32,000 nucleotides of DNA, from contig NC_017080.1 in NCBI RefSeq assembly GCF_000284115.1, forward strand, positions 3,660,001 to 3,692,000, in the 5' to 3' direction. Position numbers and translations under genes: made by a program. Positions 1 to 17,173 of the stretch are shown here, in pieces. The DNA is from Phycisphaera mikurensis NBRC 102666. GTDB taxonomy: Bacteria > Planctomycetota > Phycisphaerae > Phycisphaerales > Phycisphaeraceae. The first letter of the stretch is position 1. Each line of letters opens with the position of its first letter. The notes beneath the pieces were generated by a model. It saw only the letters and a list, made by a program, of their open reading frames with translations. It did not search any database and had not been told where the DNA came from.

Positions 1-1519
1 TGGCGGCGAGCGTGAGGCGGACGTACGCCGACATCCGGCGGATGCGTCGGACCTTCACGAGGCGCTCGACGGCGGCGGGATCGACCCGTGTGGGGAAGCC
101 GCCGCCCGCCGGCGGCTCGGCATCCAGGGCGGCGCGGAACGCGTCGTTGCCGACGGCGCCGGGCAGCACGACGCCGAGACCGGTGACGACGACGCCGTTG
201 CCGGCGGCGGCGTCGGTGTCGGCGTCGGTGTCGGCGTCGGTGTCGGCGTCGTTGCCGCGGACCGCCGGCGTCCGGGCTCCGAAACGCTCGCGGTCCGCGG
301 CGTCCCGCCGCTCGACGACCGCGAAGGTGTTGGCACCGCCGAAGCCGATCGAGAGCGCCCCGACCGCTTCCAGCGGCGGATCGGCCGGTGCGGCGGCGCC
401 GGTGACCAACGCCCGCGCGACCGCCGGCGACTCCACGTCGGCCGGGACGACGTTCGCGGTGGTCGGGAGCACCTGCGCCTCCAGGGCGTGCGTGGCGAGC
501 AGCAGCTCGACGGCGCCCGCCCCGCCGAGCGTGTGGCCCAAGCGGCTCTTGAGCGCGACGACGCGGACGCCGCCGCCGCCGAGCGCGTCGCCGAACGCCT
601 CCTCCATCGCCGCCGCCTCGCCCTGCTCGTTGCCGGGCGTGCCGGTGCCGTGGGCGCAGACCAGGCCGACCTCCGCGGGGGCCCGACCCGCCGCCCCGAG
701 CCCGGCGCGGATCGCCCGGGCGGCGCCGCGGCCGGCGGGGTCGGGCTGGGTGAGGTGGTGGGCGTCGCTGCTCTCGCCCACGCCGGCGAGGCGGAAGCCG
801 GCGCGGTGCCCGCGGGCCGCCGCGTCCGGGCCGCGCTCCAGCACCAGCACGCCGTAACCCTCTCCGAGCATCATGCCCCGCCGGTCGCGGGCAAAGGGAC
901 GCACGCCGCTGCCGCTGATCAGCCGCAGCGCGTTGAAGCCGCCGTAGGCGTACTCGCTGACGGTGTCGTAGCCGCCGGCGACGACGACGTCGAGGCTGCC
1001 GTCCTCCAGCAGGTCGCGGGCGAGGCCCAGGCTCGAGAGCCCCGAGGAGCACGCCGCGCAGCCGGTGACGCCGAGGCCCTCGACGCGGACGGGCAGGCCC
1101 GCGACCGCCGCCTGCAGCACGGCGGCGCCCTGGAAGCGTCGCAGCGCGGCGGGGTCGTCCGCGCGGAGCGCCACGCCCGCGGAGCGCATCCCGTGCAGCG
1201 TCGTCCCCATGACCACGCCGATGCGGTCGGCCGGGACGTCGCCCGCGCCGATGCCCGCGTCCGCCAGCGCGGCGGCGAGCGCGTGCCGGAGGTACGCCGC
1301 CTCGCGCGGGAGGTCGTCGCGGGCGCCCCCGGGCAGGTCCGCCGCCTGGTAGCCGGTCCGCGGTCCGCCCTCGTGCGGTTCGAGCGCGGTCAGCTCCGCC
1401 GGCCCGGCCGCTCCGCCGGCGATCAGCGACGCCCACGCGGCGTCCCGGTCCGCCCCCAGCACGCAAGCGAGCGCCCGCCCGCTGATGACGATCTCGGCGG
1501 TGTCGGTCTGGGTCTCCAC
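1..1519 (-). CDS. beta-ketoacyl-ACP synthase (KS, active-site Cys present) that continues without a stop into the N-terminus of a second KS/CLF-like domain; the 3' end runs off the left edge of the window
   Basis: My own minus-strand translation from GTG at 1519 gives VETQTDTAEIVISGRALA. It contains the catalytic GVTGCAACSSG (about 1045-1075), PFARDRRGMMLGEGYGVLVLE (about 840-900), VCAHGTGT (about 640-665) and the KS C-terminus SIGFGGANTFAVVERR (about 305-355). The same frame stays open to base 1 and reads GNGVVVTGLGVVLPGAVGNDAFRAAL...RRIRRMSAYVRLTLAA, a typical KS N-terminus. It is absent from the ORF track because it has no stop inside the window. Confidence 0.85.
   Translation of the reverse strand, partial: METQTDTAEIVISGRALACVLGADRDAAWASLIAGGAAGPAELTALEPHEGGPRTGYQAADLPGGARDDLPREAAYLRHALAAALADAGIGAGDVPADRIGVVMGTTLHGMRSAGVALRADDPAALRRFQGAAVLQAAVAGLPVRVEGLGVTGCAACSSGLSSLGLARDLLEDGSLDVVVAGGYDTVSEYAYGGFNALRLISGSGVRPFARDRRGMMLGEGYGVLVLERGPDAAARGHRAGFRLAGVGESSDAHHLTQPDPAGRGAARAIRAGLGAAGRAPAEVGLVCAHGTGTPGNEQGEAAAMEEAFGDALGGGGVRVVALKSRLGHTLGGAGAVELLLATHALEAQVLPTTANVVPADVESPAVARALVTGAAAPADPPLEAVGALSIGFGGANTFAVVERRDAADRERFGARTPAVRGNDADTDADTDADTDAAAGNGVVVTGLGVVLPGAVGNDAFRAALDAEPPAGGGFPTRVDPAAVERLVKVRRIRRMSAYVRLTLAA
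209..250 (-). repeat. tandem 12-nt repeat (GGCGTCGGTGTC x3.5) encoding a (DADT)n linker
   Basis: Direct reading: three perfect GGCGTCGGTGTC units at 209-244 plus a partial unit to 250. On the coding strand this reads GAC ACC GAC GCC = DTDA, repeated. Confidence 0.9.
254..301. repeat. 46-nt conserved-arm hairpin element, copy 1 (12-bp arms), inside the KS-KS linker coding sequence
   Basis: GCCGCGGACCGC at 254-265 and GCGGTCCGCGGC at 290-301 are perfect reverse complements. The 10-nt cores lie at 255-264 and 291-300 and are separated by exactly 26 nt. Confidence 0.8.
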
Positions 1520-1526
1520 GGGCGGT

Positions 1527-2525
1527 TCAGCGGTCGGGACGTGCGGGGGGCAGCGTAGGAACGCGGTGGGCGGGGTCTGCGCGCCCTCCCGCCGCCTCGA
1601 AGCGCGGCGACAACTCCAGCCACTGCCCGGGGTTCTCGCCGATCTCGGCGGCGAGGGCGGCGGCGAGCCGGAGCATCGCTTCGCCGGGGGCGCCGGGCCG
1701 CGGGAAGGCGGCGCCGCCGGCCACGCGGATCGGCCGGTGAAGCCGGAGCTCCACGCCGCCGGGGGTCCGCACCGCGAACACCGGGACGATGGCCGCCCCC
1801 GCCATCGCGGCGAGCTTCACCGGGCCCACGGGCAGCTCGGCGGTGCCGCCGAGGAAGGGCACGCGCACGCCACGCTGCCCGGGCATCACCCGATCGGCCT
1901 GGCACAGGACCGCGGCGCCGGCTTCCAGCCGCGCGCGGAGCGCCGTCCAGACGTCCAGCGAGTCGGGCCCGCCGACGACCGCGTCGTGAACGCCCAGCCG
2001 CCGGTGAAGCCGGGCGCGGGCGGCGTCGAAGGCCGCGAAGGGGTCCCGCTGGAAGACGACGTGGACGTCGGGCTCGAGGCCGCGGAGTGCCGCGATGCCG
2101 ACCTCGAAGGAGCCCAGGTGCGCGGTCGCGAAGACGATCCCGCCTCCGCTTGCGCGGGCCGCCGCGTGGTGCTCCCGCCCGCGGACCGCGGCGACCTGCG
2201 CCCGGAGCGCCTCGGGCTCCGCCCGGCCGGCCGCGCCCACCTCGCGGATGAAGCGGTAGAAGCTGCGGAGCACGTCGTCGGCGAGGCGGCGGCGGGCCGC
2301 CCGCGTCGCGTCGGGCCCGAGCAGGAAGGGCGCGTTGGCCACCACCCCGCCCCGCAGCGGCCCGCGGAAGGCGACGCGGCTGCCCAGCAGCAGCGGCCGC
2401 TCCACCGCGGCGAGCAGGCCGGGAAAGGCCGCGTTCGCCCCGAAGAGCAGGCGGAGGCACGCGTCGGCGGCCCGGCCGTGGACGCCCGCTCCGCCCGCGT
2501 CCCCCGCCGCCGGCTCAGCCGCCAT
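1527..2525 (-). CDS. lysophospholipid/lipid A (LpxL/HtrB-type) acyltransferase family protein
   Basis: Track ORF of 332 aa. Its overall pattern (FATAHLGSFE, VVFQRD, LCQADRV, VPFLGGTAELPVGPVKLA, IVPVF) matches the late lauroyl/myristoyl acyltransferase family that is typical of aryl-polyene clusters. It overlaps the upstream gene by 11 nt. Confidence 0.75.
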   Translation of the reverse strand: MAAEPAAGDAGGAGVHGRAADACLRLLFGANAAFPGLLAAVERPLLLGSRVAFRGPLRGGVVANAPFLLGPDATRAARRRLADDVLRSFYRFIREVGAAGRAEPEALRAQVAAVRGREHHAAARASGGGIVFATAHLGSFEVGIAALRGLEPDVHVVFQRDPFAAFDAARARLHRRLGVHDAVVGGPDSLDVWTALRARLEAGAAVLCQADRVMPGQRGVRVPFLGGTAELPVGPVKLAAMAGAAIVPVFAVRTPGGVELRLHRPIRVAGGAAFPRPGAPGEAMLRLAAALAAEIGENPGQWLELSPRFEAAGGRADPAHRVPTLPPARPDR

Positions 2526-3198
2526 AGGGCCTCACCACCTCGAAGCCCTCGGGCGCCGGCGGCTCGATGACGCAGGGTTCGGGCTTCACCTCGGGGCTGG
2601 CGAAGCGGTACGACGTCGACGAGCCGTCGCCGTCCACCGTCTCCAGAAGCCGCACCGCCCCGGTCGCCTCCTCGATCCCCAGACCGATCGATCGCAGCTG
2701 CTCGGCCACGGCGGCGTCGCGGGGCACCAGCCGCAGGCCGATCAAAGGCGGCAGAGGATCCGCCGCGTCGGCCCCCGCCCAGGCCGGCGGCTCGGCCTCC
2801 ACCACCTCGAACCGCTCGGTGAGCTCCGACAGCGGCGACGCGGGCCCGAAGCCCATCCCGCCGGCCACGCTCAGGTCGTACACCTCCACCCGCTTCTCGT
2901 CGGGGTAGACGATCCGCATCTCGCCGCCGGCGATGACGGTGGTGCCGGGCCGCGGCCGGAGCGTCTCCCAGCGGAGCGCGCCGCCGGAGGCGGTGAGCAC
3001 ACCCGAGGACGCCAGCGGCTTCCGCAGAAGCGGCGTCACCTTGCGACGCTCGAAGGCGGCGGTCATGCAGGCGTCGGCGAGGTCCGGGCGGTTCGCGTCG
3101 AGCCGCGTGAGCAGCGCCGCCATCGCCGGCTCGGGCTTCTGGGCCCGGGCGGGAGCGGCGGCGAGGAGCAGCGACAGGAGCAGGGCGATCGTCCGCAT
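2515..3198 (-). CDS. LolA-like outer-membrane lipoprotein carrier family protein (secreted)
   Basis: 227 aa with an N-terminal signal peptide, MRTIALLLSLLLAAAPARAQ. Size and position between the ACP/DH and acyltransferase genes match the LolA-like gene of APE-type clusters. The sequence-level assignment is from context and weak pattern recall. Confidence 0.55.
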   Translation of the reverse strand: MRTIALLLSLLLAAAPARAQKPEPAMAALLTRLDANRPDLADACMTAAFERRKVTPLLRKPLASSGVLTASGGALRWETLRPRPGTTVIAGGEMRIVYPDEKRVEVYDLSVAGGMGFGPASPLSELTERFEVVEAEPPAWAGADAADPLPPLIGLRLVPRDAAVAEQLRSIGLGIEEATGAVRLLETVDGDGSSTSYRFASPEVKPEPCVIEPPAPEGFEVVRPYGG

Positions 3199-3206
3199 GG
3201 CGTCTC

Positions 3207-3929
3207 TTAGCCGATCGCCAGCGACAGCGTGCCCTCGGCGACGACCTCTCCGCCGCTGTGTGCCCGCACCTCGAATGCCGTGACGCCGGCCGCCGAGGCG
3301 CCGCGCGTCGCGTGCAGCTCGAGGGTTGCCGGCGGCTTCACCGACGACCGGAAGCGGACGTCCGCCGCGGCGAGCCGGCCCCCGCCGGCGGGAGCCCCGG
3401 CCGCCTCCTCGGCGGCGAGCACGAGGCCCGCCGCCTGCGCCAGCGCTTCGGTGACCAGCACGCCGGGCACGATTGGGTTTCCCGGGAAGTGGCCCACGAA
3501 GAAGGACTCGTCGCCGGTGAGCTCCCAGCGGGCGGTCGCCGCGACACCGGGCTCCACCGATCGCAGAGCGGTGACGAAGCGGAACGGCGGCCGGTGGGGC
3601 AGGCGGTCGAGCACGGCGGCGAGGTCGACCGCGGGGGCCGCCGCCGCGGGATCGCCCCCCGCGTCGACCGGCGGATCGGCGGCTTCGAGCCGCCCGAGGT
3701 GCTCGACGATCGTGCCGACGCTGGCGAAGAGCCGCTCCGCCGAGCCGTCCCGGGCGAGCTTCACGCCGAAGCTCTTCTCGATCGAGCCCATCAGCATCAC
3801 GACGTCGAGCGAATCGAGATCGAACTCGCCGCCGATCAGCGGCATGTCGTCGGCGATGTCCGCGTCGTCGCCGAGGCGCAGGTCCCGGCGCAGGAGGTCC
3901 TTCACGCGGGTCGAGAGGGCGGCGCTCAT
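3207..3929 (-). CDS. acyl carrier protein fused to a FabZ/FabA-like (hotdog) 3-hydroxyacyl-ACP dehydratase
   Basis: Start taken at the internal ATG 3929 (MSAALSTRVKDLL). The ACP phosphopantetheine site is GGEFDLDSLDVVMLMGSIE. After an Ala/Pro linker comes the dehydratase region LPHRPPFRFV...FFVGHFPGNPIVPGVLVTEALAQ. The 39 codons upstream in the track ORF look non-coding. Confidence 0.8.
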   Translation of the reverse strand: MSAALSTRVKDLLRRDLRLGDDADIADDMPLIGGEFDLDSLDVVMLMGSIEKSFGVKLARDGSAERLFASVGTIVEHLGRLEAADPPVDAGGDPAAAAPAVDLAAVLDRLPHRPPFRFVTALRSVEPGVAATARWELTGDESFFVGHFPGNPIVPGVLVTEALAQAAGLVLAAEEAAGAPAGGGRLAAADVRFRSSVKPPATLELHATRGASAAGVTAFEVRAHSGGEVVAEGTLSLAIG

Positions 3930-3960
3930 GCGGCCACGGTCCGCGGATTCCGCTCCGGGG

Positions 3961-4779
3961 TCAAGTCGCCGCGGGCGTGTCCGCCGCGCGCCGTCCCGCC
4001 CCCCGCAGCCGCTCGGCCACCAGACGGGCGTGCAGACGCAATCCACGGAGCGAATCGGCCACCGGCCGGAAGTGCGTCACGCGACCGGTCGCCACCGCGT
4101 ACCGCCCCCCCACCGGCACCTCGACCACCCGCACCCCCAGCCGGTGGCAGCGCACGATCACCTCGGTCTCGAAGCCGAAGCGGGAGGCCGTGCATCCCGC
4201 CCGCACGACCGCCGCCAGCGGGTACACCCGCATCCCGGTCTGGCTGTCGCTCACGCGGAGGCCGCAGGCCAGCCGGACCGATCGATCGGAGACGGAGCGG
4301 CCCACCGCGGACCGCAGCGGCGTGCCCGGCAGCCGCCCCGGCCGCACGCCGAGCACGAGCGAGCCGCGATCCGCCGCGGAGGCGGCCAGCATCGCCGGGA
4401 CCGCGGCCGGGTCGTGCTGCCCGTCGGCGTCGAGGGTGACCGCATGCGTGAAGCCTCGGCCCATCGCCCAGGCGAAGCCGGTGTGCAGCGCCGCCGCCTT
4501 CCCGCGGTTGTCGGCGTGGCGGAGGCGGAACAGGTCGGCCCGCCGGGTCGCCGCGGCCGTCACCACGGCTCCGGTGGCGTCGGTGCTGCCGTCATCCACC
4601 ACGAGCGCCGGCGTGCCGGCCGGCAGGCCCGCCAGCACCGCGCCCAGCGCCGGCGCGTGGTTGAAGGCCGGCACCAGCACCAGCGGCTCGAACGCAGCCG
4701 GCGGCGCAGCCGCCCGCCGCGGGAGACCCGTGGGCGGCAGCGGCGGCGCGGGCGGGAGCGGCGGGCGGATCGACGGCAT
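3961..4779 (-). CDS. family 2 glycosyltransferase
   Basis: VLVPAFNHA, LVVDDGSTD, NRGKAAAL and TLDADGQHDP are classical GT2 (DXD) motifs. 272 aa. Confidence 0.85.
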   Translation of the reverse strand: MPSIRPPLPPAPPLPPTGLPRRAAAPPAAFEPLVLVPAFNHAPALGAVLAGLPAGTPALVVDDGSTDATGAVVTAAATRRADLFRLRHADNRGKAAALHTGFAWAMGRGFTHAVTLDADGQHDPAAVPAMLAASAADRGSLVLGVRPGRLPGTPLRSAVGRSVSDRSVRLACGLRVSDSQTGMRVYPLAAVVRAGCTASRFGFETEVIVRCHRLGVRVVEVPVGGRYAVATGRVTHFRPVADSLRGLRLHARLVAERLRGAGRRAADTPAAT

Positions 4780-4868
4780 CGGGGAGGCCGGCGGAGGGGG
4801 ATCCGCCGGCGGGCTCTGGAGGATCCTTAACGTACCCGCCCGGCGGACCCGCGGCCGGGCAAGCCGCC

Positions 4869-5780
4869 ATGGAGGAACCCCGCCGAGAACACGCCCCGAC
4901 GCCGCCCGCTTGGGCGTCGCGGGGCGCCGCCTGGGAGAGCGCCTTCCCCGGCCTGCGCTCCTTGCAGCCCGCCCCCGGCCACAGCCTCGTCGAGGCGGTG
5001 GCCCCCGCGGCGGACACCGCCGACCCGGCCGGCCTGCAAGACGCCACCCGCCTCGCCTACCGGCGCCTGCTGCGCCGGGCCGCCGACGCCCGCCTCGCCC
5101 CGCTGCGGTTCTGGAACTACGTGCCGGGCATCACCGAGCCCGCGGGCGACGCCGCTCACCGGTACATGGTCTTCAACGCCGGGCGCGCCGCGGGGATGGC
5201 CGAGGCGGGCTTTGCCGGCCGCCGCGTCGCCGCCTCCGCCGTCGGCTTCCCCGGGGACGCCGACGCCCCCCGCCTCACCGTCCAGATGCTCGCCGGCCCC
5301 GCCCCCGCCGAGCCCGCGGAGAACCCCCGCCAGGTGCCCGCTTGGCGGTACTCCGACCGCTTCGGCGACGTGCCCCCCGCCTTCGCGCGGGCGGCCCGGC
5401 TGCCGGCCTCGGCGGGGTTCCTGCCCGGCGCCCTCCTCCTCGCCGGCACCGCCAGCGTCGTCGGCGAGGAGAGCCTGCACCCCGGCGACCTCGCCGCCCA
5501 GGCCGCCGAGACCTGCACCAACCTCGCCGTGCTGCTCGCCGCGGGGGCCGGCCGTGCCCTCGCCCCGGGGGCCGCCGGCGGCGAGGAGGACGTCCATCTC
5601 GCCCGGCTCCGGGACCTGCGCGTCTACGTGAAGCGTGCGGCGGACCTGCCCGCGGTCGGCCGGATGCTCCAGGCTCGCTGCCCCGCGGCGTCGGTGTCGC
5701 TCATGCACGCGGAGATCTGCCGCCCCGAGCTGCTGCTGGAGGCGGAAGGCGTCTCCAGCGAGCGGCTCGCCGAGGCCTGA
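4869..5780 (+). CDS. FkbO/Hyg5/XanB2-family chorismatase (hydroxybenzoate-forming), RidA-like C-terminal domain
   Basis: RFWNYVPGI, YMVFNAGRA and LLAGTASVVGEESLHPGDLAAQAAETCTNLAVLL match my recollection of the chorismatase family. It is divergent from the polyene-lipid operon, as xanB2 is in xanthomonadin clusters. Confidence 0.65.
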   Translation: MEEPRREHAPTPPAWASRGAAWESAFPGLRSLQPAPGHSLVEAVAPAADTADPAGLQDATRLAYRRLLRRAADARLAPLRFWNYVPGITEPAGDAAHRYMVFNAGRAAGMAEAGFAGRRVAASAVGFPGDADAPRLTVQMLAGPAPAEPAENPRQVPAWRYSDRFGDVPPAFARAARLPASAGFLPGALLLAGTASVVGEESLHPGDLAAQAAETCTNLAVLLAAGAGRALAPGAAGGEEDVHLARLRDLRVYVKRAADLPAVGRMLQARCPAASVSLMHAEICRPELLLEAEGVSSERLAEA

Positions 5781-5788
5781 TCCGGCGG

Positions 5789-5834
5789 CCGCGGACCGCG
5801 GGCCCGAACGACGAATTGCCGCCGCGGTCCGCGG
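5789..5834. repeat. 46-nt conserved-arm hairpin element, copy 2 (13-bp arms)
   Basis: CCGCGGACCGCGG at 5789-5801 and CCGCGGTCCGCGG at 5822-5834 are perfect reverse complements. The element starts 8 nt after the chorismatase stop codon (5778-5780). Confidence 0.85.
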
Positions 5835-5924
5835 AGCCGGCCGATGCTTTTAGGATCACGGCCCGGACGCTCCCGACGCCGGGACGCTCCCGATCCCGGC
5901 CCGGCACGTCGCGGCACGACACCC

Positions 5925-6332
5925 ATGGCCCACTCCCACACCCCCGAAGCCCACGCCAAGATCCGCCGCGACCACGCGCAGGAAACCGCGGAAGACTACG
6001 TGGAGGCCGTCGCCGACCTGGTCGCCGAGCGTGGCACCTGCCGCGTGGTCGACCTCGCGGAGCGCTTCGGCGTCAGCCACGTCACGACGCTGCGGGTGGT
6101 GAAGCGGCTCGTCAGCGAGGACCTCCTCAAGACCGAGCCCCGCAAGCCGATCGAGCTGACCTCCGCCGGGAAGAAGCTCGCCGCCGCCTGCGCCCAGCGG
6201 CACGAGGCCGTCTACCGCTTCCTCCGCAAGCTCGGCGTGAGCAAGAGAGTGGCCGCCCTCGACGCCGAGGGCATCGAGCACCACCTCAGCAAGCCGACGC
6301 TGAAGGCCATGCGAGCCTTCACCGCCGGCTGA
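5925..6332 (+). CDS. mntR: DtxR/MntR-family manganese-responsive transcriptional regulator
   Basis: MAHSHTPEAHAKIRRDHAQETAEDYVEAVADLV...CRVVDLAERFGVSHVTTLRVVKRL is an MntR-like wHTH plus dimerisation domain with no SH3 domain, about 135 aa. Start set at ATG 5925 because the 27 codons upstream in the track ORF are full of rare A/T-ending codons. Confidence 0.85.
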   Translation: MAHSHTPEAHAKIRRDHAQETAEDYVEAVADLVAERGTCRVVDLAERFGVSHVTTLRVVKRLVSEDLLKTEPRKPIELTSAGKKLAAACAQRHEAVYRFLRKLGVSKRVAALDAEGIEHHLSKPTLKAMRAFTAG

Positions 6333-6356
6333 CCCCGGAGCCCGCCGCCCTTGCGC

Positions 6357-6399
6357 GGTAGCTTCCGCTACACTCCGCCGCTCCCGTAGCCGCCGCTAC
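6357..6399 (+). promoter_or_regulatory. two copies of a 15-bp dyad, (G/C)GTAGC-N4-GCTAC, 28 bp apart; candidate MntR operator pair
   Basis: GGTAGCTTCCGCTAC at 6357-6371 and CGTAGCCGCCGCTAC at 6385-6399. Each contains GTAGC and its reverse complement GCTAC. They lie between the mntR stop and the ABC-importer start (6418). Confidence 0.35.
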
Positions 6400-6417
6400 C
6401 GACCGACCCGCCCCGTC

Positions 6418-7365
6418 ATGCCCCCACGCTCCCCCCTCCGCGGCCTCTTGTTCCCCACCCTCGCCCTGCTCGCGGCGGCGCTGATCACCGGCTGCGACGA
6501 CACCGGCCCCGCCGCGACCGCGGGCGGCCGCGAGGACGGACGCACGCGGGTGGTGACCACCTTCACCATCCTCCAGGACATGGCGCAGAACGTCGCCGGC
6601 GAGGCGGCGGTCGTCGAGTCGATCACCAAGCCCGGCGCCGAGATCCACGAGTACCAGCCGACCCCGCTGGACATCGTCAAGGCCCAGGACGCCGACCTGG
6701 TGATCCGCAACGGCATGGGGCTGGAGCGGTGGTTCGAGAAGTTCATGGGCAGCGTCGCCGACGTCCCCAGCGTCGACCTCTCCGAGGGCGTGGAGCCGAT
6801 GAGCATCGGCGGGGGGCCGTACGACGGCAAGCCCAACCCGCACGCCTGGATGTCGCCGAGCAACGCCCTGATCTACGTCGAGAACATCCGCAAGGCGCTC
6901 AGCGACGTCGACCCCGCGAACGCCGAGACCTACCGGACCAACGCCGAGGCCTACGCGGCGGAGATCCGGGCGATCGAGGAGCCGACCCGCCAGAAGCTTG
7001 CGGAGATCCCCGCCGAGCGGCGCTGGCTGGTCTCCAGCGAGGGCGCCTTCAGCTACCTCGCCCGCGACAACGGGATGAAGGAGCTGTTCCTCTGGCCGGT
7101 GAACGCGGACGCCGAGGGCACGCCGCAGCAGATCCGCCGGGTGGTCGACACGATCCGCGCCAACGACATCCCCGTGGCCTTCAGCGAGAGCACGATCAGC
7201 GACAAGCCGATGCGGCAGGTCGTCGCCGAATCCGGCTCCCGCTACGGCGGCGTGCTCTACGTCGACTCGCTGACCGACGCGGGCGGCGTGGCGCCGACCT
7301 ACCTCCAGCTGCTGGCCTACAACGCGCGGACGATCGTCGACGGCTTCGAGGAAGGCTTGGAGTGA
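6418..7365 (+). CDS. metal (Mn/Fe/Zn) ABC transporter substrate-binding lipoprotein, TroA/PsaA/SitA family
   Basis: Lipobox LITGC after a signal peptide. [34 protein letters not shown] and SEGAFSYLA are typical of cluster-9 SBPs. Confidence 0.9.
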
Positions 7366-8252
7366 ACGGAGCCGGCCGCGGCGATCGACCGATCGGCCTC
7401 CGCGTGAGCGAGGTGACGGTGGCGTACAACAACGGCCACGTCGCCCTGCACGACGCGAGCTTCGAGCTGGGGCCGGGCACGATCTGCGCGCTGGTGGGCG
7501 TGAACGGCAGCGGGAAGTCGACGCTCTTCAAGGCGATCATGGGCTTCGTGAAGCCCGCCCGCGGCGGCGTGACCATCGGCGAGCTCCCGGTGAAGCGGGC
7601 CCACCGCGAGAACCTCGTGGCGTACGTGCCGCAGGCCGAGGACGTCGACTGGGACTTCCCGGTGAGCGTCTGGGACGTCGTTCTGATGGGTCGCTACGGC
7701 TCGATGAACTTCCTGCGGATCCCGCGGCAGGCGGACAAGCGGATCGCCACCGAGTCGCTGGAGCGCGTCGGCATGCTCGGCTTCAAGGACCGCCAGATCG
7801 GCGAGCTCTCCGGCGGGCAGAAGAAGCGCGTCTTCCTCGCCCGGGCGCTGGCGCAGCGCGGCCGCATCCTGCTGCTCGACGAGCCGTTCACGGGGGTGGA
7901 CGTGAAGACCGAGGCTTCCATCATCGAGCTGCTGCGGGAGCTGCGGGACGAGGGCCACCTCGTCCTGGTGAGCACGCACGACCTCGGCTCCATCCCCAGC
8001 TTCTGCGACCGCGTGGTCATCATCAACCGCACCGTGCTCGCCGCCGGCCCCACGCACGCGACCTTCACGCAGGAGAACCTCGCCCGCGCCTTCGGCGGCG
8101 CCCTCCGCGACCTGCACCTGGACCACACCGACGACCCCGGCTCGGCGCCGAACACCTACCGCGTCCTCAGCGACGACGAGGAGCCGCTGGTCTTCGGTGC
8201 CGACGGCCGCATGGTCGCCCACCGGCACCCGCACGAGGAGGAAGCGCAGTGA
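7362..8252 (+). CDS. Mn/Fe ABC transporter ATP-binding protein
   Basis: Walker [10 protein letters not shown], signature LSGGQKKR, Walker B ILLLDEP. The GTG start at 7362 overlaps the SBP stop (GTGA). The long N-terminal part of track ORF 6729..8252 is shadow sequence. Confidence 0.9.
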
Positions 8253-8343
8253 GCGATCCCGTGCCCGCGGGGAGCGTCCGGGCTCCGGGCCGATGCCGGC
8301 GCATCCCGCTGCGCGCTGCGGGTGAGGACGCGGGAGCCGCCGG

Positions 8344-9258
8344 ATGATCGAGCCGCTCCTCGTGCCGTTTCAGTACGACTACATGGTCAGGGCGATGCTC
8401 GTCAGCGGCGTCATCGGGCTCGTCTGCGGCCTGCTGTCCTGCTTCGTCACGCTCAAGGGCTGGTCGCTCATGGGCGACGCGCTCGCGCACGCGATCGTCC
8501 CGGGCGTGGCGATCACCTACTTCGCGGGGCTGCCGTTCGCGCTGGGCGCTTTCGTGAGCGGGCTGCTCGCGGCGATGGTGATGGCGCTCGTGAAGAGCCG
8601 CACGCCGATCCGCGAGGACGCGGTCATCGGCATCGTCTTCACGACCTTCTTCGCCGCCGGCGTGCTGCTGATCTCGGTCTTCCCCAGCAACATCAGCCTG
8701 AAGACGATCGTCTTCGGCAACATCCTGGGCATCGCCGACGGCGACGTCGTGCAGATGCTGCTCATCTCCGCCGTGACGCTCGCGGTGATCGGGCTGAAGT
8801 GGAAGGACCTGCTGCTGTTCTGCTTCGACCCGAACCAGGCGAGAGCGATCGGCTTGAACCCGGCAGTGCTGCACCTCACGCTGCTCACGCTGCTCGCGGG
8901 CACCGCGGTCGCGGCGCTGCAAGCGGTGGGCGCCTGCCTGGTCGTCGCGATGCTCGTGACACCCGGCGCGACCGCGTACCTGCTCACCGACCGGTTCCCG
9001 CGGATGATGCTGCTCGCGTGCCTCACGGGCACGCTCACCAGCGTGGTGGGGGCGTATGCCAGCTACTTCCTCAACGGCTCCACCGGCGGGTGCATCGTGT
9101 GCCTGCAGACGGCGGTCTTCCTGCTGGTTCTGTTTCTCGCCCCCAAGCACGGCGTCCGCGCCGGCCGCCGCCGCGGGCGCGACACGGCCGACGCGCTCCT
9201 CGCCTCCGGCGACGCCGCGCCCGTGCTGGCGACCACCTCGACCGCGGAGCGCGCTTGA
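8344..9258 (+). CDS. metal ABC transporter permease (ABC-3 family), subunit 1
   Basis: MIEPLLVPFQYDYMVRAM...TLKGWSLMGDALAHAIVPGV is a SitC/MntB-type membrane protein. Confidence 0.9.
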   Translation: MIEPLLVPFQYDYMVRAMLVSGVIGLVCGLLSCFVTLKGWSLMGDALAHAIVPGVAITYFAGLPFALGAFVSGLLAAMVMALVKSRTPIREDAVIGIVFTTFFAAGVLLISVFPSNISLKTIVFGNILGIADGDVVQMLLISAVTLAVIGLKWKDLLLFCFDPNQARAIGLNPAVLHLTLLTLLAGTAVAALQAVGACLVVAMLVTPGATAYLLTDRFPRMMLLACLTGTLTSVVGAYASYFLNGSTGGCIVCLQTAVFLLVLFLAPKHGVRAGRRRGRDTADALLASGDAAPVLATTSTAERA

Positions 9259-10118
9259 GCGTCGCGTACCTGCTCGAACCGTTCCAGTACGGCTTCATGA
9301 AGGAAGCCATGCTCATGGCCGCGCTCATCGGCGCGACCTGCGCCCTGCTCAGCTGCTACCTGGTGCTCAAGGGCTGGTCGCTGATGGGCGACGCGGTCAG
9401 CCACGCCGTGCTGCCGGGCATCGTGCTCGCGTACGTCGTCGGCCTCCCGCTGGGCGTCGGGGCCTTCTTCGCCGGCGTGCTGTGCGCCGGGAGCACCGGC
9501 TGGATCAAGAACCACAGCCGCGTCAAGGAAGACACCGTGATGGGCGTCGTCTTCACCGGGCTCTTCGCGCTGGGCCTGGTGATGTACTCCAAGATCCAGA
9601 GCGACATCCACCTGAACCACGTCCTCTTCGGCAGCCTGCTGGGCATCGAGACCGGCGACATGATCCAGGCCGTCGTCGCGTCGGGCCTGACGCTCGCCGC
9701 GGTCGCCATCTTCCGCAAAGACCTTCTGCTGTACCTCTTCGACGCGAATCAGGCCCGGGCCGTGGGCCTGAACCCGACCTTCCTGCACTACCTGTTGCTG
9801 TCGATCCTCTCGCTGACGATCGTCGCCTCGCTGCAGGCCGTGGGCATCATCCTCACCGTCGCGATGCTCATCGTGCCCGGTTGCATCGGCCAGCTGCTCG
9901 CCGACCGCTTCGGCCGGATGCTCGGGATCGCCTCGGCCGCCGCGGTTTTCTCCGCCGTCGCGGGGACGTACGCCAGCTACTTCCTCAACGGCGAGACGGG
10001 CGCCTGCATCGTGCTGGTGCAGGCGCTGATCCTCCTGCTCGCGGTCTTGTTCGCCCCCAAGCACGGCGTGCTCTCCCGCGCCCGCACCACACGCCGGGCG
10101 ACCGCGTCGGCGGCCTGA
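9255..10118 (+). CDS. metal ABC transporter permease (ABC-3 family), subunit 2
   Basis: Paralog of the preceding gene: LSVAYLLEPFQYGFMKEAM...VLKGWSLMGDAVSHAVLPGI. The conserved LLEPFQY segment lies upstream of the first ATG. The only in-frame start is TTG at 9255, overlapping the upstream stop (TTGA). Confidence 0.85.
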   Translation: MSVAYLLEPFQYGFMKEAMLMAALIGATCALLSCYLVLKGWSLMGDAVSHAVLPGIVLAYVVGLPLGVGAFFAGVLCAGSTGWIKNHSRVKEDTVMGVVFTGLFALGLVMYSKIQSDIHLNHVLFGSLLGIETGDMIQAVVASGLTLAAVAIFRKDLLLYLFDANQARAVGLNPTFLHYLLLSILSLTIVASLQAVGIILTVAMLIVPGCIGQLLADRFGRMLGIASAAAVFSAVAGTYASYFLNGETGACIVLVQALILLLAVLFAPKHGVLSRARTTRRATASAA

Positions 10119-10128
10119 CGCGCCGCCG
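10108..10128. terminator. short GC hairpin between convergent genes (possible bidirectional terminator)
   Basis: CGGCGGC at 10108-10114 pairs with GCCGCCG at 10122-10128. The 7-nt loop contains the permease stop TGA. There is no U-tract. Confidence 0.3.
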
Positions 10129-10131
10129 GCC

Positions 10132-11241
10132 TCAGGGCCGGCACGGCTTGGCCTCCGACGGCATCCACCCCCGCAGCGCCCACCGCAGGAGCAGCGCCCC
10201 CAGCACGATCGCCGAGCCCGCGGACAGCCACAGGGGGAGCATGTCGTGCCCCGCGGCGGCCTGGGCGGCCACGGGGATCGACCACGCGCTCACCAACGCG
10301 TCGGCGAGCAGGCCGCAGGCGAGCGCCCCGCCGCAGGCGCCGGCCAGGTACGCGGCACAGGCCCGGCCACCGAGCTCCTGCCGCACGATGCCGATGGTGC
10401 CCAGGTTCGTCGCCGGACCGGCGAGCAGGAAGACCAACGCGGTGCCGGGGCTTACACCGGCGAGCAGGAGCGCCGCGGCGACGGGCGTGCTCGCCGTGGC
10501 GCACAGGTACATCGGCACGCCCAGCAGCATCACGCCGAGCATCGCCGGCAGGCCGCCGCCCCAGCCCGCGATCGTGCCGGGTGGGACCAGCGTCTGGACC
10601 AGGGCGGCGAGCAGGATGCCCAGCGTCAGCCAGAGAGCGATGTCGCCGAAGAGCTCGTCGGCGGCGTAGCGGAGCGCCTCCAGCGGCTTGGGCCGGGCCG
10701 GCGCGGCGGGCTCGGCGGCGACGCCCCCGCCCGACGCGCAGCACGACGCCGCGGCGGACGCGGGCGGCGAGGAACCGCTCGCCGCGGCCGCGGCCGCGGC
10801 CGCGGGCGCGGGGAGTGGCGGGCCCTCTCTCTGGTCCGTGGCCCCCGCCAGCAGCCCCGCAAGCACCGCCGAGGACACCGCCGCCACCGGCCGGGCCACG
10901 GTCATGAACGGCCCGAGCAGAGCCCACGACAACGCGATCGAATCCGCGCCGTTCTCGGGCGTCGACACCAGGAACGACACCGTCGCCCCCTTGCCCGCCC
11001 CGCCCCGACGCAGCGTGAGCGCCGCCGGCACCACGCTGCAAGAGCACAGCGGCAGCGGCGTGCCGATGACGGCCGCCGTGAAGACCGGCCCGACGCCCCC
11101 GCCTCCGAGCCACCGCTGGAGCAAGCCGGCGGGCAGGTAGACCTTGATGAGGCCGGAGACGGCCAAGCCCAGCAGCAGCCACGGCGCCGCCTCGAGCACC
11201 ACGTGCCCGAGGTTCGAGAGGAAGAGCTGGATCCACACCAT
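10132..11241 (-). CDS. UPF0718/ArsP-type permease, SO_0444-like putative Cu/Zn (thiophilic metal) transporter
   Basis: Two-fold membrane repeat with GTPLPLCSCSVVP and GVPMYLCATASTP motifs, plus a central Ala/Pro-rich loop carrying CC (ASCCASGGG). 369 aa. Confidence 0.7.
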   Translation of the reverse strand: MVWIQLFLSNLGHVVLEAAPWLLLGLAVSGLIKVYLPAGLLQRWLGGGGVGPVFTAAVIGTPLPLCSCSVVPAALTLRRGGAGKGATVSFLVSTPENGADSIALSWALLGPFMTVARPVAAVSSAVLAGLLAGATDQREGPPLPAPAAAAAAAASGSSPPASAAASCCASGGGVAAEPAAPARPKPLEALRYAADELFGDIALWLTLGILLAALVQTLVPPGTIAGWGGGLPAMLGVMLLGVPMYLCATASTPVAAALLLAGVSPGTALVFLLAGPATNLGTIGIVRQELGGRACAAYLAGACGGALACGLLADALVSAWSIPVAAQAAAGHDMLPLWLSAGSAIVLGALLLRWALRGWMPSEAKPCRP

Positions 11242-11266
11242 GCGCCGCCAACACTAGAACCACCCG

Positions 11267-11321
11267 CGAAGGTGTCAGGTACATTCATCCGCGGCGGGGC
11301 TGAATGTTCCTGACACCTTCG
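11267..11321. repeat. 55-bp near-perfect palindrome (21-bp arms, 13-nt spacer) in a divergent intergenic region
   Basis: CGAAGGTGTCAGGTACATTCA at 11267-11287 and TGAATGTTCCTGACACCTTCG at 11301-11321 are reverse complements, 20/21. CCG flanks both sides. Confidence 0.9.
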
Positions 11322-11358
11322 CCGGATGCTGCGGCGACGAGGGCGTAGGTTGCCGGGG

Positions 11359-12129
11359 ATGCAGCCTCGCTTCCGGTCCACGTCCCGCTTCGATGCCGTC
11401 CTGTGCGACGTCGACGGCTGCCTCGTCGACGAGGCGGGCGGGCCGCTTCCGCTGGAGAAGCTCGGCCGCATCGCCGCTCACAACCGGCTCGCCCTCGACG
11501 CGGAAGACCGGCCGATCGTCACGCTCTGCACCGGCCGGCCCGAGCCTTTCGCCGAGTGCCTCGCCCGGGTGATCGGCAACCCGCTGCTGCCGATCGTCTG
11601 CGAGAACGGGGCGTGGCTGCACGACCCGACCGACAACGCGTACCTGCTCGATCCGGCCGTGACCGCCGAGGACCTCGCCGCGGTGGCGGCGCTGGAGGGC
11701 TGGGTCCGCCGGGAGCTGGGCTCCGCCGGCGTGAGCATCCAGCCGGGCAAGACCGCCTCGGTGTCGCTGTACCACCCCGATGCGGAACTCCTCGAGGCCT
11801 TCAAGCCGCGGCTGCGCGACGCCGCGGACGGCCACGGCTGGCCCTTCCGCGTCTCGGGGACCTGGAGCTACATCAACTGCGACCTCCGGAAGGTCAGCAA
11901 AGCGACCGGCATCGCCCGCTTGCTCGCACTCACCGGGATCGAGGCCGCCCGCTGCGCCGGGATCGGCGACACGGCGCACGACCTGCAGATCGCCGAGTCG
12001 GTCGCCTGGTTCGGCGTTCCCCACAACCGCGACCCGATCCTCGACGACGCGGCCGACCGGATCGCCGCCGCTCCGGGCGTCGACGGCGTCATCGAGCTCC
12101 TCGCCCACCTCGGGCCGCCGGTGCCCTGA
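11359..12129 (+). CDS. HAD-IIB (Cof/sucrose-phosphatase-like) family hydrolase
   Basis: Motif I FDAVLCDVDGCL, motif II LCTGR, and K...GDTAHD at the C-terminal end. Start set at ATG 11359. The alternative ATG 11326 adds 11 codons rich in rare codons (CGA, AGG, TTG, CGT). Confidence 0.7.
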   Translation: MQPRFRSTSRFDAVLCDVDGCLVDEAGGPLPLEKLGRIAAHNRLALDAEDRPIVTLCTGRPEPFAECLARVIGNPLLPIVCENGAWLHDPTDNAYLLDPAVTAEDLAAVAALEGWVRRELGSAGVSIQPGKTASVSLYHPDAELLEAFKPRLRDAADGHGWPFRVSGTWSYINCDLRKVSKATGIARLLALTGIEAARCAGIGDTAHDLQIAESVAWFGVPHNRDPILDDAADRIAAAPGVDGVIELLAHLGPPVP

Positions 12130-12140
12130 GGCCGCGCGTC

Positions 12141-12188
12141 CCCGCGGACCGCTCGCCCCAGGCCGCCTTCTTCGCGGCGGTCCGCGGG
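12141..12188. repeat. 46-nt conserved-arm hairpin element, copy 3 (12-bp arms)
   Basis: CCCGCGGACCGC at 12141-12152 and GCGGTCCGCGGG at 12177-12188 are perfect reverse complements. The element lies 11 nt after the HAD stop and 12 nt before the next ATG (12201). Confidence 0.85.
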
Positions 12189-12200
12189 TAGCGTCACCGC

Positions 12201-12575
12201 ATGTGGAACCTCCTCCCGATGCTGCTGCTCGCCGCGGCCCTCGCTGGCTGCGCCGCCCCCCCGCCGCCGCAGGCGGACATCGACGCCGCCGACTTCGGCG
12301 ACCCGCCGATCACGTTCCGATCCCAGATCCGCGAAGCGCTCGGGCAGACGCTGTACGACCCGCCCACCGCCCAGCTCCGCTACGAGCCGCCCTTCCGGGC
12401 CGTCGTCCGCAGCGGCGGCGGCTGGACCGCCGGCTGGGTCGTGCCCGTCGCCGTCAAGGCCCGCGGCCCCCGTGGCGCGTACTCGACCTTCCTGCCCCGC
12501 CGGTTCTTCTTCCCTTCCGGCGGCGGCTGCTTCGAGCTGCACGGCGGGCAGCAAGCGGTCCCGGCGAGCGACTGA
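12201..12575 (+). CDS. small lipoprotein of unknown function
   Basis: MWNLLPMLLLAAALAGC is a signal peptide plus lipobox. GC3 is very high throughout its 124 aa. I recognise no family. Confidence 0.6.
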   Translation: MWNLLPMLLLAAALAGCAAPPPPQADIDAADFGDPPITFRSQIREALGQTLYDPPTAQLRYEPPFRAVVRSGGGWTAGWVVPVAVKARGPRGAYSTFLPRRFFFPSGGGCFELHGGQQAVPASD

Positions 12576-12594
12576 ACCGGCCCCCTCCGCCCGC

Positions 12595-13191
12595 TCAGGA
12601 CATCGCACGCCGAGCGCACGTCCGGCAGATCCGCTCGCCGTAGGCGACGCAGTCTTGGCGTACACCGTCGGTGATGGAGGCCTCGGCGTCTTTGCCCTCC
12701 TCCGGGTTCTGCTGGGCCATGACGCCCAGGAAGCCGCCCAGGAAGTTCTTCTCGTGTTCTTCGCCGGTGTAGCGGGCGGGCATCGTGCCGTTGCCCACCC
12801 AGACCATCATGTGCTGGCTGGCGTGCAGGCTCATGTACTGCAGCGTGGACACCTTGTCGCCGGAGGGGCTGGAGGAGTGGGTGAAGCCGCCGGCGATCTT
12901 GTCCTTGAAGGAGAGCTTGAACCACTCGCCGCCGAGGCCGTCGATGACGGCCTTGAGCTGCGCCGCGACGGTGCCCATGTAGGTGGGGCTACCGAGCACG
13001 ATGGCGTCGGCGGCACGCAGCTTCTCGACGATCCCGCCGGGGTCCCGCCAGCGGCCCTCGGCGATGTCCGATCCCTGCACCCGGTAGAGCTCCGCCGTGC
13101 CGCCGGCTTGGCGAACCCCCTCGGCGAGGGCTTCGGCCATGAGGTGGGTGTGGCCGCTGGCGGAGAAGTAGACGAGCTGGACGGTGGGCAT
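12595..13191 (-). CDS. flavodoxin-fold NAD(P)H:quinone oxidoreductase (WrbA-like)
   Basis: Internal ATG at 13191 gives MPTVQLVYFSASGHTHLMAEALAEG...AIVLGSPTYMGTVAAQLKAVID...GGFTHSSSPSGDK, 198 aa. The rest of the 612-aa track ORF is shadow sequence overlapping feoB. Confidence 0.8.
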   Translation of the reverse strand: MPTVQLVYFSASGHTHLMAEALAEGVRQAGGTAELYRVQGSDIAEGRWRDPGGIVEKLRAADAIVLGSPTYMGTVAAQLKAVIDGLGGEWFKLSFKDKIAGGFTHSSSPSGDKVSTLQYMSLHASQHMMVWVGNGTMPARYTGEEHEKNFLGGFLGVMAQQNPEEGKDAEASITDGVRQDCVAYGERICRTCARRAMS

Positions 13192-13277
13192 GAGCGAGCT
13201 CTTCGGAGGGGGGACGCGTGCGTTCGAGCGTAGATCTCGCGAGGCGTGCTTGAGCCGCGTCGCTGCGCGGCCGGGCG

Positions 13278-15319
<2,042 letters not shown>

Positions 15320-15323
<4 letters not shown>

Positions 15324-15700
15324 GCCCGGGATCCGCCGGAGGAGAGGGTGAGCGGCGTGAGCCGGGTGCCGTCGGCGGCGCGGGGCTCGGCCTCGCTCCG
15401 CGTGCAGGGCTGCGCGTGCAGCCGCTCTGCCAGCCGCCGCGCCACGCCGACGCGGGAGCCGAGCACCTTCAAGATCAACGGATCGCCGATCTTGTCGACC
15501 TGCACCTTCCGGCCGACGCACAGGCCCAGCCGCTTGAGCGTGTCGGTGACGCCGGCCCGACCGGGCTCCAAGCCCGCGTCGTCGTCGACGGCGTCGATCA
15601 CGGCGACCTGCCCGCGGGCGAGGTCGACCACGCGGACCGAGCCGGGCGAGAGGCAGCCGGCTTGTGCGGGCGTGGGGGGCGAGGCGGGGGCATCGGGCAT
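15320..15700 (-). CDS. feoA: FeoA-domain protein
   Basis: VRVVDLARGQVAVIDAV...TDTLKRLGLCVGRKVQVDKIGDPLILKVLGSRVGV is a FeoA SH3-like fold. ATG 15700 is preceded by GGAG. The C-terminal tail is longer than usual. Confidence 0.8.
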
Positions 15701-15876
15701 GGGGGACTCCGGGCGGCGCGGGCAACTGCGCCGGCGTGGGTCGCAGATTACCCGCGGCAAGCCAGCGGCGGCGGTCCCCGGCGGCGGAGGGGGTGCAACC
15801 GGCGCAGACCTCCCCACGCCCCGCCCGGGGGTGCTGCCCGCGCGGCCCGGCTCAACCCGCCCGGGGCCGTCGGCCG

Positions 15877-16140
15877 ATGACCCTTCCAGCGGCCGCCCGC
15901 CACGCGGCTCGCTGGAGCTTCACCATGATGACCGCCGTCCTCGCCATCCTCTGCGTCTACCTCGCCGCCTGCTACGCCTACGGCGGCTACCTCCTCGTCG
16001 GCGTGCTCCGCGGGTCGGCGGCGGGCGAAGCCCCCGCGGCCCACGACGACGCCGTGGCGGACGGCCCGCGGGCGGCCATCCTCCGGGCCGCGCGCGAAGG
16101 CGAGGCCCGCGAGGCGCCTCCGGCCCGCATGGCCGCCTGA
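15877..16140 (+). CDS. small single-pass membrane protein, hypothetical
   Basis: 87 codons with about 93% GC3 (my count, 6 of 87 codons end in A/T). One hydrophobic helix, MMTAVLAILCVYLAACYAYGGYLLVGVL. No family recognised. Confidence 0.45.
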   Translation: MTLPAAARHAARWSFTMMTAVLAILCVYLAACYAYGGYLLVGVLRGSAAGEAPAAHDDAVADGPRAAILRAAREGEAREAPPARMAA

Positions 16141-16141
16141 G

Positions 16142-16846
16142 TCAGCCGCCGCCCCGCGTCAGCGGCAGCAGCGCCTCGGCGATCGCGAGGTCGTCGGCGG
16201 TCTTGATGACGTGCCCGCTCACCGGGCCCACCGGAAGGAAGCCGACGTCGCCGGCCCAGGTGGCGCAGCGGCCGGCGTCGGCGGCGGCCAGGAAAGCCGC
16301 CCGACGCCAGCCGGTGATGCTCCAGGTGATCCGCTGCACGGGCCGCAGCTCCTGCGAGTTGGTCTTCTCGGCGAAGGTGAAGTTGACCGGCCGTCCGTCC
16401 AGAGCGCACTCGATCTGATCGGGGATGTAGCTGACGACGGCGTCGTGCGGCGAAGCGACCGCCGCCCGCACGAAGCCGGCGACCTCGCCGGCGGTGAGCA
16501 GCGGCGCGATCGAGTGCACCTGGAAGACCCACGCGCAGGGGTGGGCCCGCAGGAACTCCGCGACGAACTGCTCGCTGGTGGCGGCGTGGCCGCCGAGCTC
16601 GGCCGGCCGGCGGTGGAAGGCCGCGCCGTGCGCCTCGGCGAGCGGGCGGAAGGCGAGGTCCTCGGAGTTGAGCCAGACGCCGTCGAAGACGCCGGCGGCG
16701 TGGCACTTGTCGATGGCCCGCGCCGCCAGCGGCACCCCGCCGAGCTCGCGGAGGTTCTTGCGGGTCAGCCGCTGGCTGCCCATGCGCGCGGGGATCATCG
16801 CGAGCACGCGGCTCGAAGCGTCCGGATCGTCTTCTTGAGCGGGCAT
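16142..16846 (-). CDS. acylneuraminate (CMP-sugar) cytidylyltransferase family protein
   Basis: Internal ATG 16846 gives MPAQEDD...RVLAMIPARMGSQRLTRKNLREL, the N-terminal signature of NeuA/KdsB-like cytidylyltransferases. 234 aa. Confidence 0.8.
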   Translation of the reverse strand: MPAQEDDPDASSRVLAMIPARMGSQRLTRKNLRELGGVPLAARAIDKCHAAGVFDGVWLNSEDLAFRPLAEAHGAAFHRRPAELGGHAATSEQFVAEFLRAHPCAWVFQVHSIAPLLTAGEVAGFVRAAVASPHDAVVSYIPDQIECALDGRPVNFTFAEKTNSQELRPVQRITWSITGWRRAAFLAAADAGRCATWAGDVGFLPVGPVSGHVIKTADDLAIAEALLPLTRGGG

Positions 16847-16874
16847 GGCGGCGACGCTACCGGCGCGGCCGGCG

Positions 16875-16920
16875 CCGCGGACCGCCGCCCGAGAACGCGG
16901 AATCTGCCGACGGTCCGCGG
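16875..16920. repeat. 46-nt conserved-arm hairpin element, copy 4 (10-bp arms)
   Basis: CCGCGGACCG at 16875-16884 and CGGTCCGCGG at 16911-16920. The element lies 28 nt upstream of the cytidylyltransferase start codon. Confidence 0.8.
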
Positions 16921-16986
16921 GCTCTGCCCGGGTCCGCTCCGCCGCCGATCTCGCGCTCGGCAGCGGCAACCCTCCCGCTCCCCGGC

Positions 16987-17173
16987 GGTGGCTCATCCAT
17001 GCCCTGGGTGTGGTGGCCGAGGGGGCGGTTGAGCGGGCACCGGGAACCACGCCCGGTCGCGTCTTCCAGCCTTCTGGGTTGTGGTCGGCTTCTGCATCGA
17101 CGGAGTCGATGAGCCACCTGTGGGGGCCGGGTGGCTCGTCAACGCCGTGGGTGTGGCGGCCGAGGCGAGCGGG
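16987..17173. repeat. imperfect direct duplication (units 16987-17037 and 17130-17173) inside a 442-bp spacer
   Basis: The first 36 nt of the two units match at 31/36 (GGTGGCTCATCCATGCCCTGGGTGTGGTGGCCGAGG versus GGTGGCTCGTCAACGCCGTGGGTGTGGCGGCCGAGG). After a 7-nt indel both continue with GAGCGGG. Confidence 0.75.

Follow-up and report, generated by a model that had tools for sequence, protein, structure and literature searches.

A 46-nt hairpin repeat family with invariant arms and fixed spacing in Phycisphaera mikurensis and its close relatives

The 46-nt hairpin elements of Phycisphaera mikurensis, a marine planctomycete, belong to a dispersed family in which two inverted 10-base arms, CCGCGGACCG and CGGTCCGCGG, are kept perfect at a constant distance while the bases between them have diverged almost to randomness. 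On balance, we favour the view that they are lineage-specific miniature palindromic repeats of P. mikurensis and close relatives, similar in kind to the REP and REPIN sequences known from proteobacteria. As far as we found, the family has not been described before; Rfam 15 gives no match at gathering score in the window, and literature searches with the arm sequences and for palindromes of Phycisphaera mikurensis returned nothing relevant. By the window, we mean the whole 32,000-nt stretch of the P. mikurensis NBRC 102666 chromosome that was analysed (positions 3,660,001 to 3,692,000 of NC_017080.1). Exact protein matches also locate it on contig JACHEL010000015.1 of assembly GCA_014207395.1.

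A preliminary description of this DNA had listed five CCGCGGACCG-N26-CGGTCCGCGG sites, and all five are confirmed. Searching the window for CCGCGGACCG-N(20-32)-CGGTCCGCGG, with the gap left free, returns matches at 255, 5789, 12142, 16875 and 28731, and the gap is 26 nt in each. The full copies, with their scores against a covariance model built from 49 copies of the family, are as follows.

255 to 300, plus strand: full copy inside the fused KS-CLF gene, which is on the minus strand (53.3 bits on the plus strand, 46.8 bits on the minus strand)
5789 to 5834, plus strand: full copy, intergenic, 8 nt past the stop of an FkbO-like chorismatase gene (52.0 bits)
12142 to 12187, plus strand: full copy, intercistronic, 12 nt past the stop of a HAD hydrolase gene (44.7 bits)
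16875 to 16920, plus strand: full copy in the 440-nt spacer between the MurJ and cytidylyltransferase genes, both on the minus strand (56.6 bits)
28731 to 28776, plus strand: full copy, intercistronic, 6 nt past the stop of a SufS-like cysteine desulfurase gene (53.3 bits)

Pfam and the database gene calls bear out most of the gene context that had been proposed, namely the stop codons 8, 12 and 6 nt before three of the copies and the KS-CLF linker location of another. Two distances are corrected: the copy at 12142 ends 13 nt (not 12 nt) before the ATG of the next gene, which encodes 124 amino acids, and the copy at 16875 lies 29 nt (not 28 nt) upstream of the minus-strand cytidylyltransferase ATG. 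The copies at 5789, 12142 and 28731 all sit between co-directional plus-strand genes. The first is upstream of a DtxR-family regulator gene and has a stem that reaches 13 bp; the last is separated by 19 nt from the ATG of the HAD gene that follows and has no counterpart in the equivalent spacer after SufS in two relatives, from which we conclude that intergenic copies turn over. Judged by GC3 frame analysis and Pfam, the window is an ordinary chromosomal stretch. Its genes include those of an aryl-polyene-like lipid cluster, namely a fused KS-CLF, an LpxL-like acyltransferase, ACP-FabA, GT2, and an FkbO-like chorismatase. Also encoded are a DtxR regulator together with a Mn/Zn ABC transporter, FeoAB, MurJ, a transglutaminase, ScpB, GcvH, Fpg, SufS, and HAD hydrolases.

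At 75% G+C, the window called for careful composition controls. In 100 dinucleotide-preserving shuffles, the pattern found five times in the real sequence did not occur once, and exact 10-mer arms number 16 in the window as against 1.5 +/- 1.3 expected from Markov-1 simulations. The covariance model separates the five copies (44.7-56.6 bits) from the next best match in the window at 19.6 bits. The scores are bimodal with few intermediates, which indicates that copies are either essentially intact or gone. That next best match (24262-24295; partial, E = 0.03) is a G+C-rich hairpin-like stretch lacking the family arms, in the divergent ScpB/GcvH spacer. Together with its flanks, the window gives about 50 kb of the 3,803,225-bp chromosome, in which we count seven exact and two damaged copies, or roughly one exact copy per 7 kb. 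The two exact copies outside the window are in the SMC gene and 2 nt past the stop of a DNA methyltransferase gene; a further copy outside it, with one mismatch, is inside a DUF2868 gene. Extrapolated from these 50 kb or so, the genome would hold several hundred copies.

Each element consists of arms of 10 bases, usually extended by an 11th Y-R pair, that enclose 24-26 bases. We collected 67 distinct exact-pattern matches and took as the family the 54 in which position 11 is a pyrimidine and position 36 a purine; the 13 that fail this rule look like chance matches. In the orientation-aware profile of the 54 copies, the arms are invariant (the scan required them) and positions 11 (C/T) and 36 (G/A) are fixed by the filter. 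Beyond these, the profile shows a G-C preference at positions 13/34 and, at 27-31, the A-rich stretch GAAAC. This patch is independent of the filter and gives the element a polarity, the asymmetry gain being 85 as against 66.5 +/- 4 in a symmetric null. The interiors had been described as unconserved. This holds for most of their length, since the six P. mikurensis interiors share a mean identity of 36% compared with 32 +/- 2% after shuffling, but it does not hold for the polar A-rich patch at 27-31. Folding predicts stable hairpins for the copies. The pair 11-36 alternates between C-G and U-A (19 copies of each, 16 exceptions; permutation p = 0.002, to which lineage structure may contribute), covariation at the interior pairs 12-35 to 18-29 is within chance, and overall the covariation beyond the invariant pairs is weak.

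Extension of the stem outwards is not above chance. The flanks show a weak (GA)AT ... ATTC preference in one lineage only, and the AT...AT flanks behave as independent features of each arm. Within the 10-11 nt of an arm there are only the small internal palindromes CCGCGG and CGGWCCG, and no GTAG/CGTC tag is found at the end of the palindrome (GTAG follows only the copy at 12142). Two other ideas about the origin of the element were considered and set aside. CRISPR-like or locally templated interiors are rejected, as the 12-mer matches of the interiors elsewhere are only self-overlaps and G+C-rich chance hits; derivation of the arms from tRNA was dropped, the flanking GAATCC being only superficially T-loop-like.

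The proteins most closely related to the fused KS-CLF come from Phycisphaerae, and the two nearest (76-78% identical) are encoded on contigs of 72% G+C (metagenome-assembled) and 64% G+C (Logan). The family is present in both of these relatives with identical arms and the exact 26-nt gap: there are five exact copies in 21 kb and two in another 11 kb of the 72% G+C relative, and two exact copies in 15 kb of the 64% G+C relative. An exact-pattern scan of metagenome contigs found 53 loci, mostly from one marine assembly (about 40 contigs); the same scan of a viral contig collection found no match. No copy occurs in 21 kb from a Planctomycetota genome with a SufS of 62% identity. Copies in the near relatives and none in this stretch of a more distant planctomycete suggest that the family is limited to a narrow Phycisphaera-like clade, within which it is common to at least three species with G+C contents from 64% to 76%. 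In unrelated high-GC genomes, gaps of 14-40 nt are spread evenly with no excess at 26 among the 120 chance matches listed.

We note some further features of the related contigs. Some spacers hold two copies at a distance of 90-210 nt, in either orientation relative to each other; these pairs occur at 790-967 of contig L143, 1429-1685 of L148, and 6242-6378 of L125 (the 72% G+C relative), and recall the clustered arrangements described for REPs. KS-CLF of the 72% G+C relative is called as two ORFs of 319 and 437 amino acids (L125, 9019-11314 and 12302-13617); a 764-aa version falls in the same 90% cluster, which suggests a frameshift or an assembly error. An IS3-family element (HTH_Tnp_1 and rve) is inserted downstream of KS-CLF in this relative.

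The strongest evidence on what is being kept comes from copies at orthologous positions. In the protein alignment, the copy in the KS-CLF linker takes one and the same position in each of the three species, and a copy in the acyltransferase gene is intact in the two relatives and reduced to one arm in P. mikurensis. Between the orthologous copies, the arms are identical at 20/20 positions and the interiors at 11/26 and 16/26 (hand count). The four-fold silent sites of the surrounding genes are 0.60-0.70 identical across the species, and at that divergence, the probability of 20/20 unchanged bases is about 1e-4 per species pair. We conclude that the arms are under purifying selection. The constraint acts on the nucleic acid rather than on the protein, as two reading frames are used and the linker peptide around the KS-CLF copy is not conserved. 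Read in frame, the window's KS-CLF copy is AADRERFGARTPAVRG, in the interdomain linker. The frame ADR...VRG is used in KS-CLF, the acyltransferase, and DUF2868, and PRT...RSA in SMC and in MurJ of a relative. The gap was 26 in every copy returned by searches that did not fix it, and its constancy after so much substitution implies selection on length as well. The earlier proposal that selection acts on the stem, through the arms and their spacing, is thus strongly supported by the cross-species comparison; both are under purifying selection at the level of DNA or RNA.

Since the interiors are near random, recent copying cannot explain the perfect arms. They reflect either selection at each locus, which would imply a function for the host, or old copies being overwritten from a master pool.

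The window holds traces of decay in addition to the five full copies.

22283 to 22328, no strand assigned: probable decaying copy in a DUF58 gene, with the right arm exact, two mismatches in the left arm (ACGCGGATCG), and a gap of 26
2179 to 2224, no strand assigned: remnant copy in the LpxL-like acyltransferase gene, with the arm at 2179-2188 exact and four mismatches in its partner
3937 to 3946, minus strand: solitary half-site, aaTCCGCGGACCGTG in the minus-strand reading, 5 nt upstream of the ACP-FabA gene ATG
1354 to 1363, 4305 to 4314, and 23832 to 23841, no strand assigned: solitary exact half-sites with no recognisable partner, the first in coding sequence

What survives of the acyltransferase copy is the half-site at 2179-2188; the two related species have intact copies at the same codons, and single-arm remnants are thus left when an element decays. 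The three partnerless half-sites could be chance occurrences or copies that have decayed further. The half-site at 3937-3946 is different. It had been called solitary, which is correct in that it is a single arm, but it is not a stray one: together with an upstream cgacTTGACC block, it is conserved before the ACP-dehydratase start in three species, with the bases between and after them varying. It may be a promoter or operator element or a fixed remnant. Its conservation shows that a single arm can be maintained alone and points to recognition of the arm with no need of a hairpin. The cgacTTGACC block (about 3958-3967 in the window, which is 8559-8568 of L123; about 6415-6424 in L125; about 297-306 in L126) precedes the half-site by 11-12 nt and the ACP-FabA start by about 30 nt in the three species, a spacing that would suit the -35 element of a promoter for a leaderless or very short-leader transcript.

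[quoted passage not shown] The family has much in common with the REPIN/RAYT system of P. fluorescens SBW25 (Bertels & Rainey 2011, PMC3116915): the ends are invariant and inverted, the spacer is of fixed length and less conserved, and a hairpin is predicted. In both, copies are numerous and mostly extragenic, single ends persist as remnants, no target duplications are seen, and the elements persist vertically in related species. The P. mikurensis elements are dispersed and mainly extragenic, with conserved inverted ends, a constant spacer, a hairpin, and decayed singlets. There are also clear differences. The element is 46 bp compared with about 100 bp, and each end of a REPIN is itself a REP, a palindrome of at least 20 nt, whereas the ends here are arms of 10-11 nt and are not REPs. 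About a fifth of the copies are in frame in genes, the host is a planctomycete, the interiors have diverged almost to randomness around perfect arms, and no RAYT is found in the loci examined. Membership of the REP/REPIN class is therefore not established, and we speak of likeness only.

The likeness leads us to suggest the following model. When single-stranded, as DNA or RNA, the arms would form a 10-11 bp G+C stem, and a sequence-specific protein would recognise the base of that stem. This protein would copy the element, or replace old copies with new ones, as the RAYT tyrosine transposases do for REPINs, and such copying or replacement could keep the arms uniform while the interiors drift. 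Copies transcribed past stop codons are probably mRNA hairpins that would protect upstream 3' ends or modulate termination or re-initiation, as for the REPs of E. coli; we propose this role since most copies are transcribed within operons just past stops. Liang, Rudd and Deutscher (2015) reportedly found an effect on termination and trans-translation for E. coli REPs located no further than about 15 nt from a stop. A purely replicative origin of the perfect arms needs copy replacement or selection at the level of the locus. A tblastn search of about 300 kb of P. mikurensis and related loci with an approximate E. coli RayT as query gave nothing below E = 2.5, and Y1_Tnp is absent from the gene lists of the examined loci. 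No insertion polymorphism was observed, the sole second assembly being probably of the same strain. Three readings had been offered for the element in the preliminary description. The REP-like repeat fits best, and the other two, an RNA element and a site for a dimeric protein, stand beside it as less probable rivals.

Other known systems are further away. REPs are known both downstream of ORFs and within genes (PMC3733652). Like the E. coli REP/BIME sequences and the GTAG/CGTC superfamilies (Di Nocera et al. 2013, PMC3733652), the family consists of short G+C-rich palindromes near stops, located between co-directional or convergent genes with some inside ORFs, and thought to act as mRNA hairpins. 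It differs from them in having no GTAG/CGTC head, a loop of 24-26 nt instead of a few bases, a perfect rather than a bulged stem, and an arm that is unchanged across species 12 GC points apart. The Rickettsia palindromic elements (RPE) are similarly palindromic repeats inserted in frame into protein-coding genes and tolerated there as additional peptide in loops or linkers; however, they measure 100-150 bp and show conservation throughout, whereas the present element adds 16 codons of which the arms alone are conserved. There is no sequence relation to the RPE, and we regard this as a likeness of behaviour, not as membership. Integron attC sites are also imperfect palindromes after ORFs with conserved outer inverted boxes and a variable centre, and they are recognised as folded single strands. 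They differ in being 57 to 141 bp, in their RYYYAAC/GTTRRRY boxes, and in forming cassette arrays beside an integrase, while the family is of fixed length and scattered among housekeeping-gene neighbours.

The observations on the arms also bear on another possibility, that the element is a binding site for a host protein. The double-stranded arms would be bound by an abundant nucleoid-associated or chromosome-organising factor or by a global regulator, as two inverted half-sites at a fixed centre-to-centre distance of 36 bp, and selection would keep each site intact wherever it stands. Such selection would account for arms that are perfect at orthologous loci when the silent sites are near saturation, for a spacing that is strict in all copies from searches with no preset gap, for sites tolerated in two reading frames inside genes, and for the bimodal covariance scores. 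The conserved half-site in a promoter-like position beside the TTGACC block in three species is also readily understood. It is the near-random interiors and this solitary half-site that keep the idea alive, although we consider it unlikely. A symmetric dimer site would not need the polarity of the interior, nor would it explain the strong preference for the first 1-16 nt past stops or the tendency of the pair 11-36 to remain complementary. Moreover, a centre distance of 36 bp is no whole number of helical turns, and no candidate protein is known. In the most developed form of the idea, which we hold to be just as doubtful, the arms are genome-wide sites of a conserved DNA- or RNA-binding protein of Phycisphaerales that measures the fixed 26-nt interval, with no transposase involved. 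The sites would then be held even in coding sequence, and the single arm could regulate the aryl-polyene-type lipid cluster. If true, this would be a new kind of chromosome- or transcriptome-wide cis-element in a phylum of unusual cell biology.

The placement of the copies raises the question of a role in RNA. About 75% of the 54 copies are outside coding frames, and about a fifth are read in frame within coding sequence (KS-CLF, SMC, DUF2868, the acyltransferase, and MurJ of a relative). Thirteen copies start 1-16 nt past a stop codon and 17 within 35 nt, as judged by a crude GC3-based gene caller and by database gene calls. A dedicated RNA cis-element would be an operon hairpin that is bound or cut by a sequence-specific protein or nuclease and sets the transcript boundaries, stability, or translational coupling of its neighbours. 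Three of the five window copies are placed as this would require, between co-directional genes and 6-12 nt past a stop, two of them ending 13-19 nt before the next start, and the predicted stems are stable. The polarity agrees as well: in 13 of the 17 stop-proximal copies (p about 0.05), and in 9 of the 11 with confident calls, the A-rich patch is in the mRNA sense. Orientation across the chromosome tells against it. All seven P. mikurensis copies point in the same chromosomal direction (score differences 2.9-11.3 bits; two-sided p about 0.016), but just four of them are in sense orientation relative to the local gene; in related contigs, the orientation is mixed. Some copies are in divergent promoter regions or antisense in genes, none matches an Rfam family, and a generic stabiliser hairpin would need no invariant stem sequence. 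We think that this explanation of the whole family is improbable.

A cut-and-paste MITE, in which the arms would be terminal inverted repeats for the transposase of a resident insertion sequence, is very improbable. The inverted repeats at both ends are indeed perfect, the copies are dispersed, and there is an IS3-family element in one related locus. Nevertheless, direct repeats of 1-5 nt flanking the copies are no commoner than in permutations, so that no target-site duplication is apparent; 46 bp is far under known MITE sizes, no IS with matching ends is found in the loci examined, and the interiors are unrelated between copies. The notion that the copies are intrinsic terminators, or a coincidence of Ala-Asp-Arg and Val-Arg-Gly codon strings in a 75% G+C genome, can be dismissed with near certainty, even though several copies follow stops and nine coding copies read ADR...VRG: the copies have no T-run, G+C-rich tails, and loops of 24-26 nt, they occur inside operons and inside genes, and a terminator scan of 1-20000, which covers four copies, flags none of them, while for the codon strings, the shuffles give no matches, most copies are non-coding, a second frame is used, and unrelated high-GC genomes show no preference for 26 nt. 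The preliminary description had named such AADR/AVRG strings as the finding that would undo it; with about three-quarters of the copies intergenic, a second frame in use, and a gap that is always 26, that account is rejected.

REP and REPIN biology rests almost wholly on gamma-proteobacteria, and a planctomycete family of minimal architecture would widen the picture. The family is in effect a natural experiment on the target of selection, which here is the sequence of the arms together with the length and not the loop. In the orthologous copies within genes, selection on DNA or RNA is seen despite coding constraints, which implies a sequence-specific protein partner. In practical terms, Phycisphaera-like genomes can readily be recognised in metagenomes by the motif, which also calls for caution with gene callers and operon predictions in this clade.

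Several other features of the window were noted in passing. Next to the copy at 255, a tandem 12-nt unit, (GGTGTCGGCGTC)n, at 215-254 is translated as a DADT repeat of the interdomain linker of KS-CLF, in place of which the relatives have different low-complexity linkers. A 36-nt direct repeat (16987-17022 and 17130-17165; 86% identical, 143 nt apart) adjoins the copy at 16875 in the unusually long 440-nt MurJ/cytidylyltransferase spacer. ARAGORN calls a 96-nt tRNA-Arg(TCG) at 19657-19752 on the minus strand, within the coding region of the transglutaminase-like (TgpA) gene; this is probably a false positive, as the coding region has strong GC3 periodicity. Finally, a 31-nt inverted repeat, CCCGCGAAGGTGTCAGGTACATTCATCCGCG / CGGGGCTGAATGTTCCTGACACCTTCGCCGG, with arms that are 87% complementary and 1 nt apart, fills the divergent spacer between the genes of an ArsP-like permease and a HAD protein at 11263-11325. 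It is unrelated to the 46-nt family and looks like an operator or a bidirectional hairpin.
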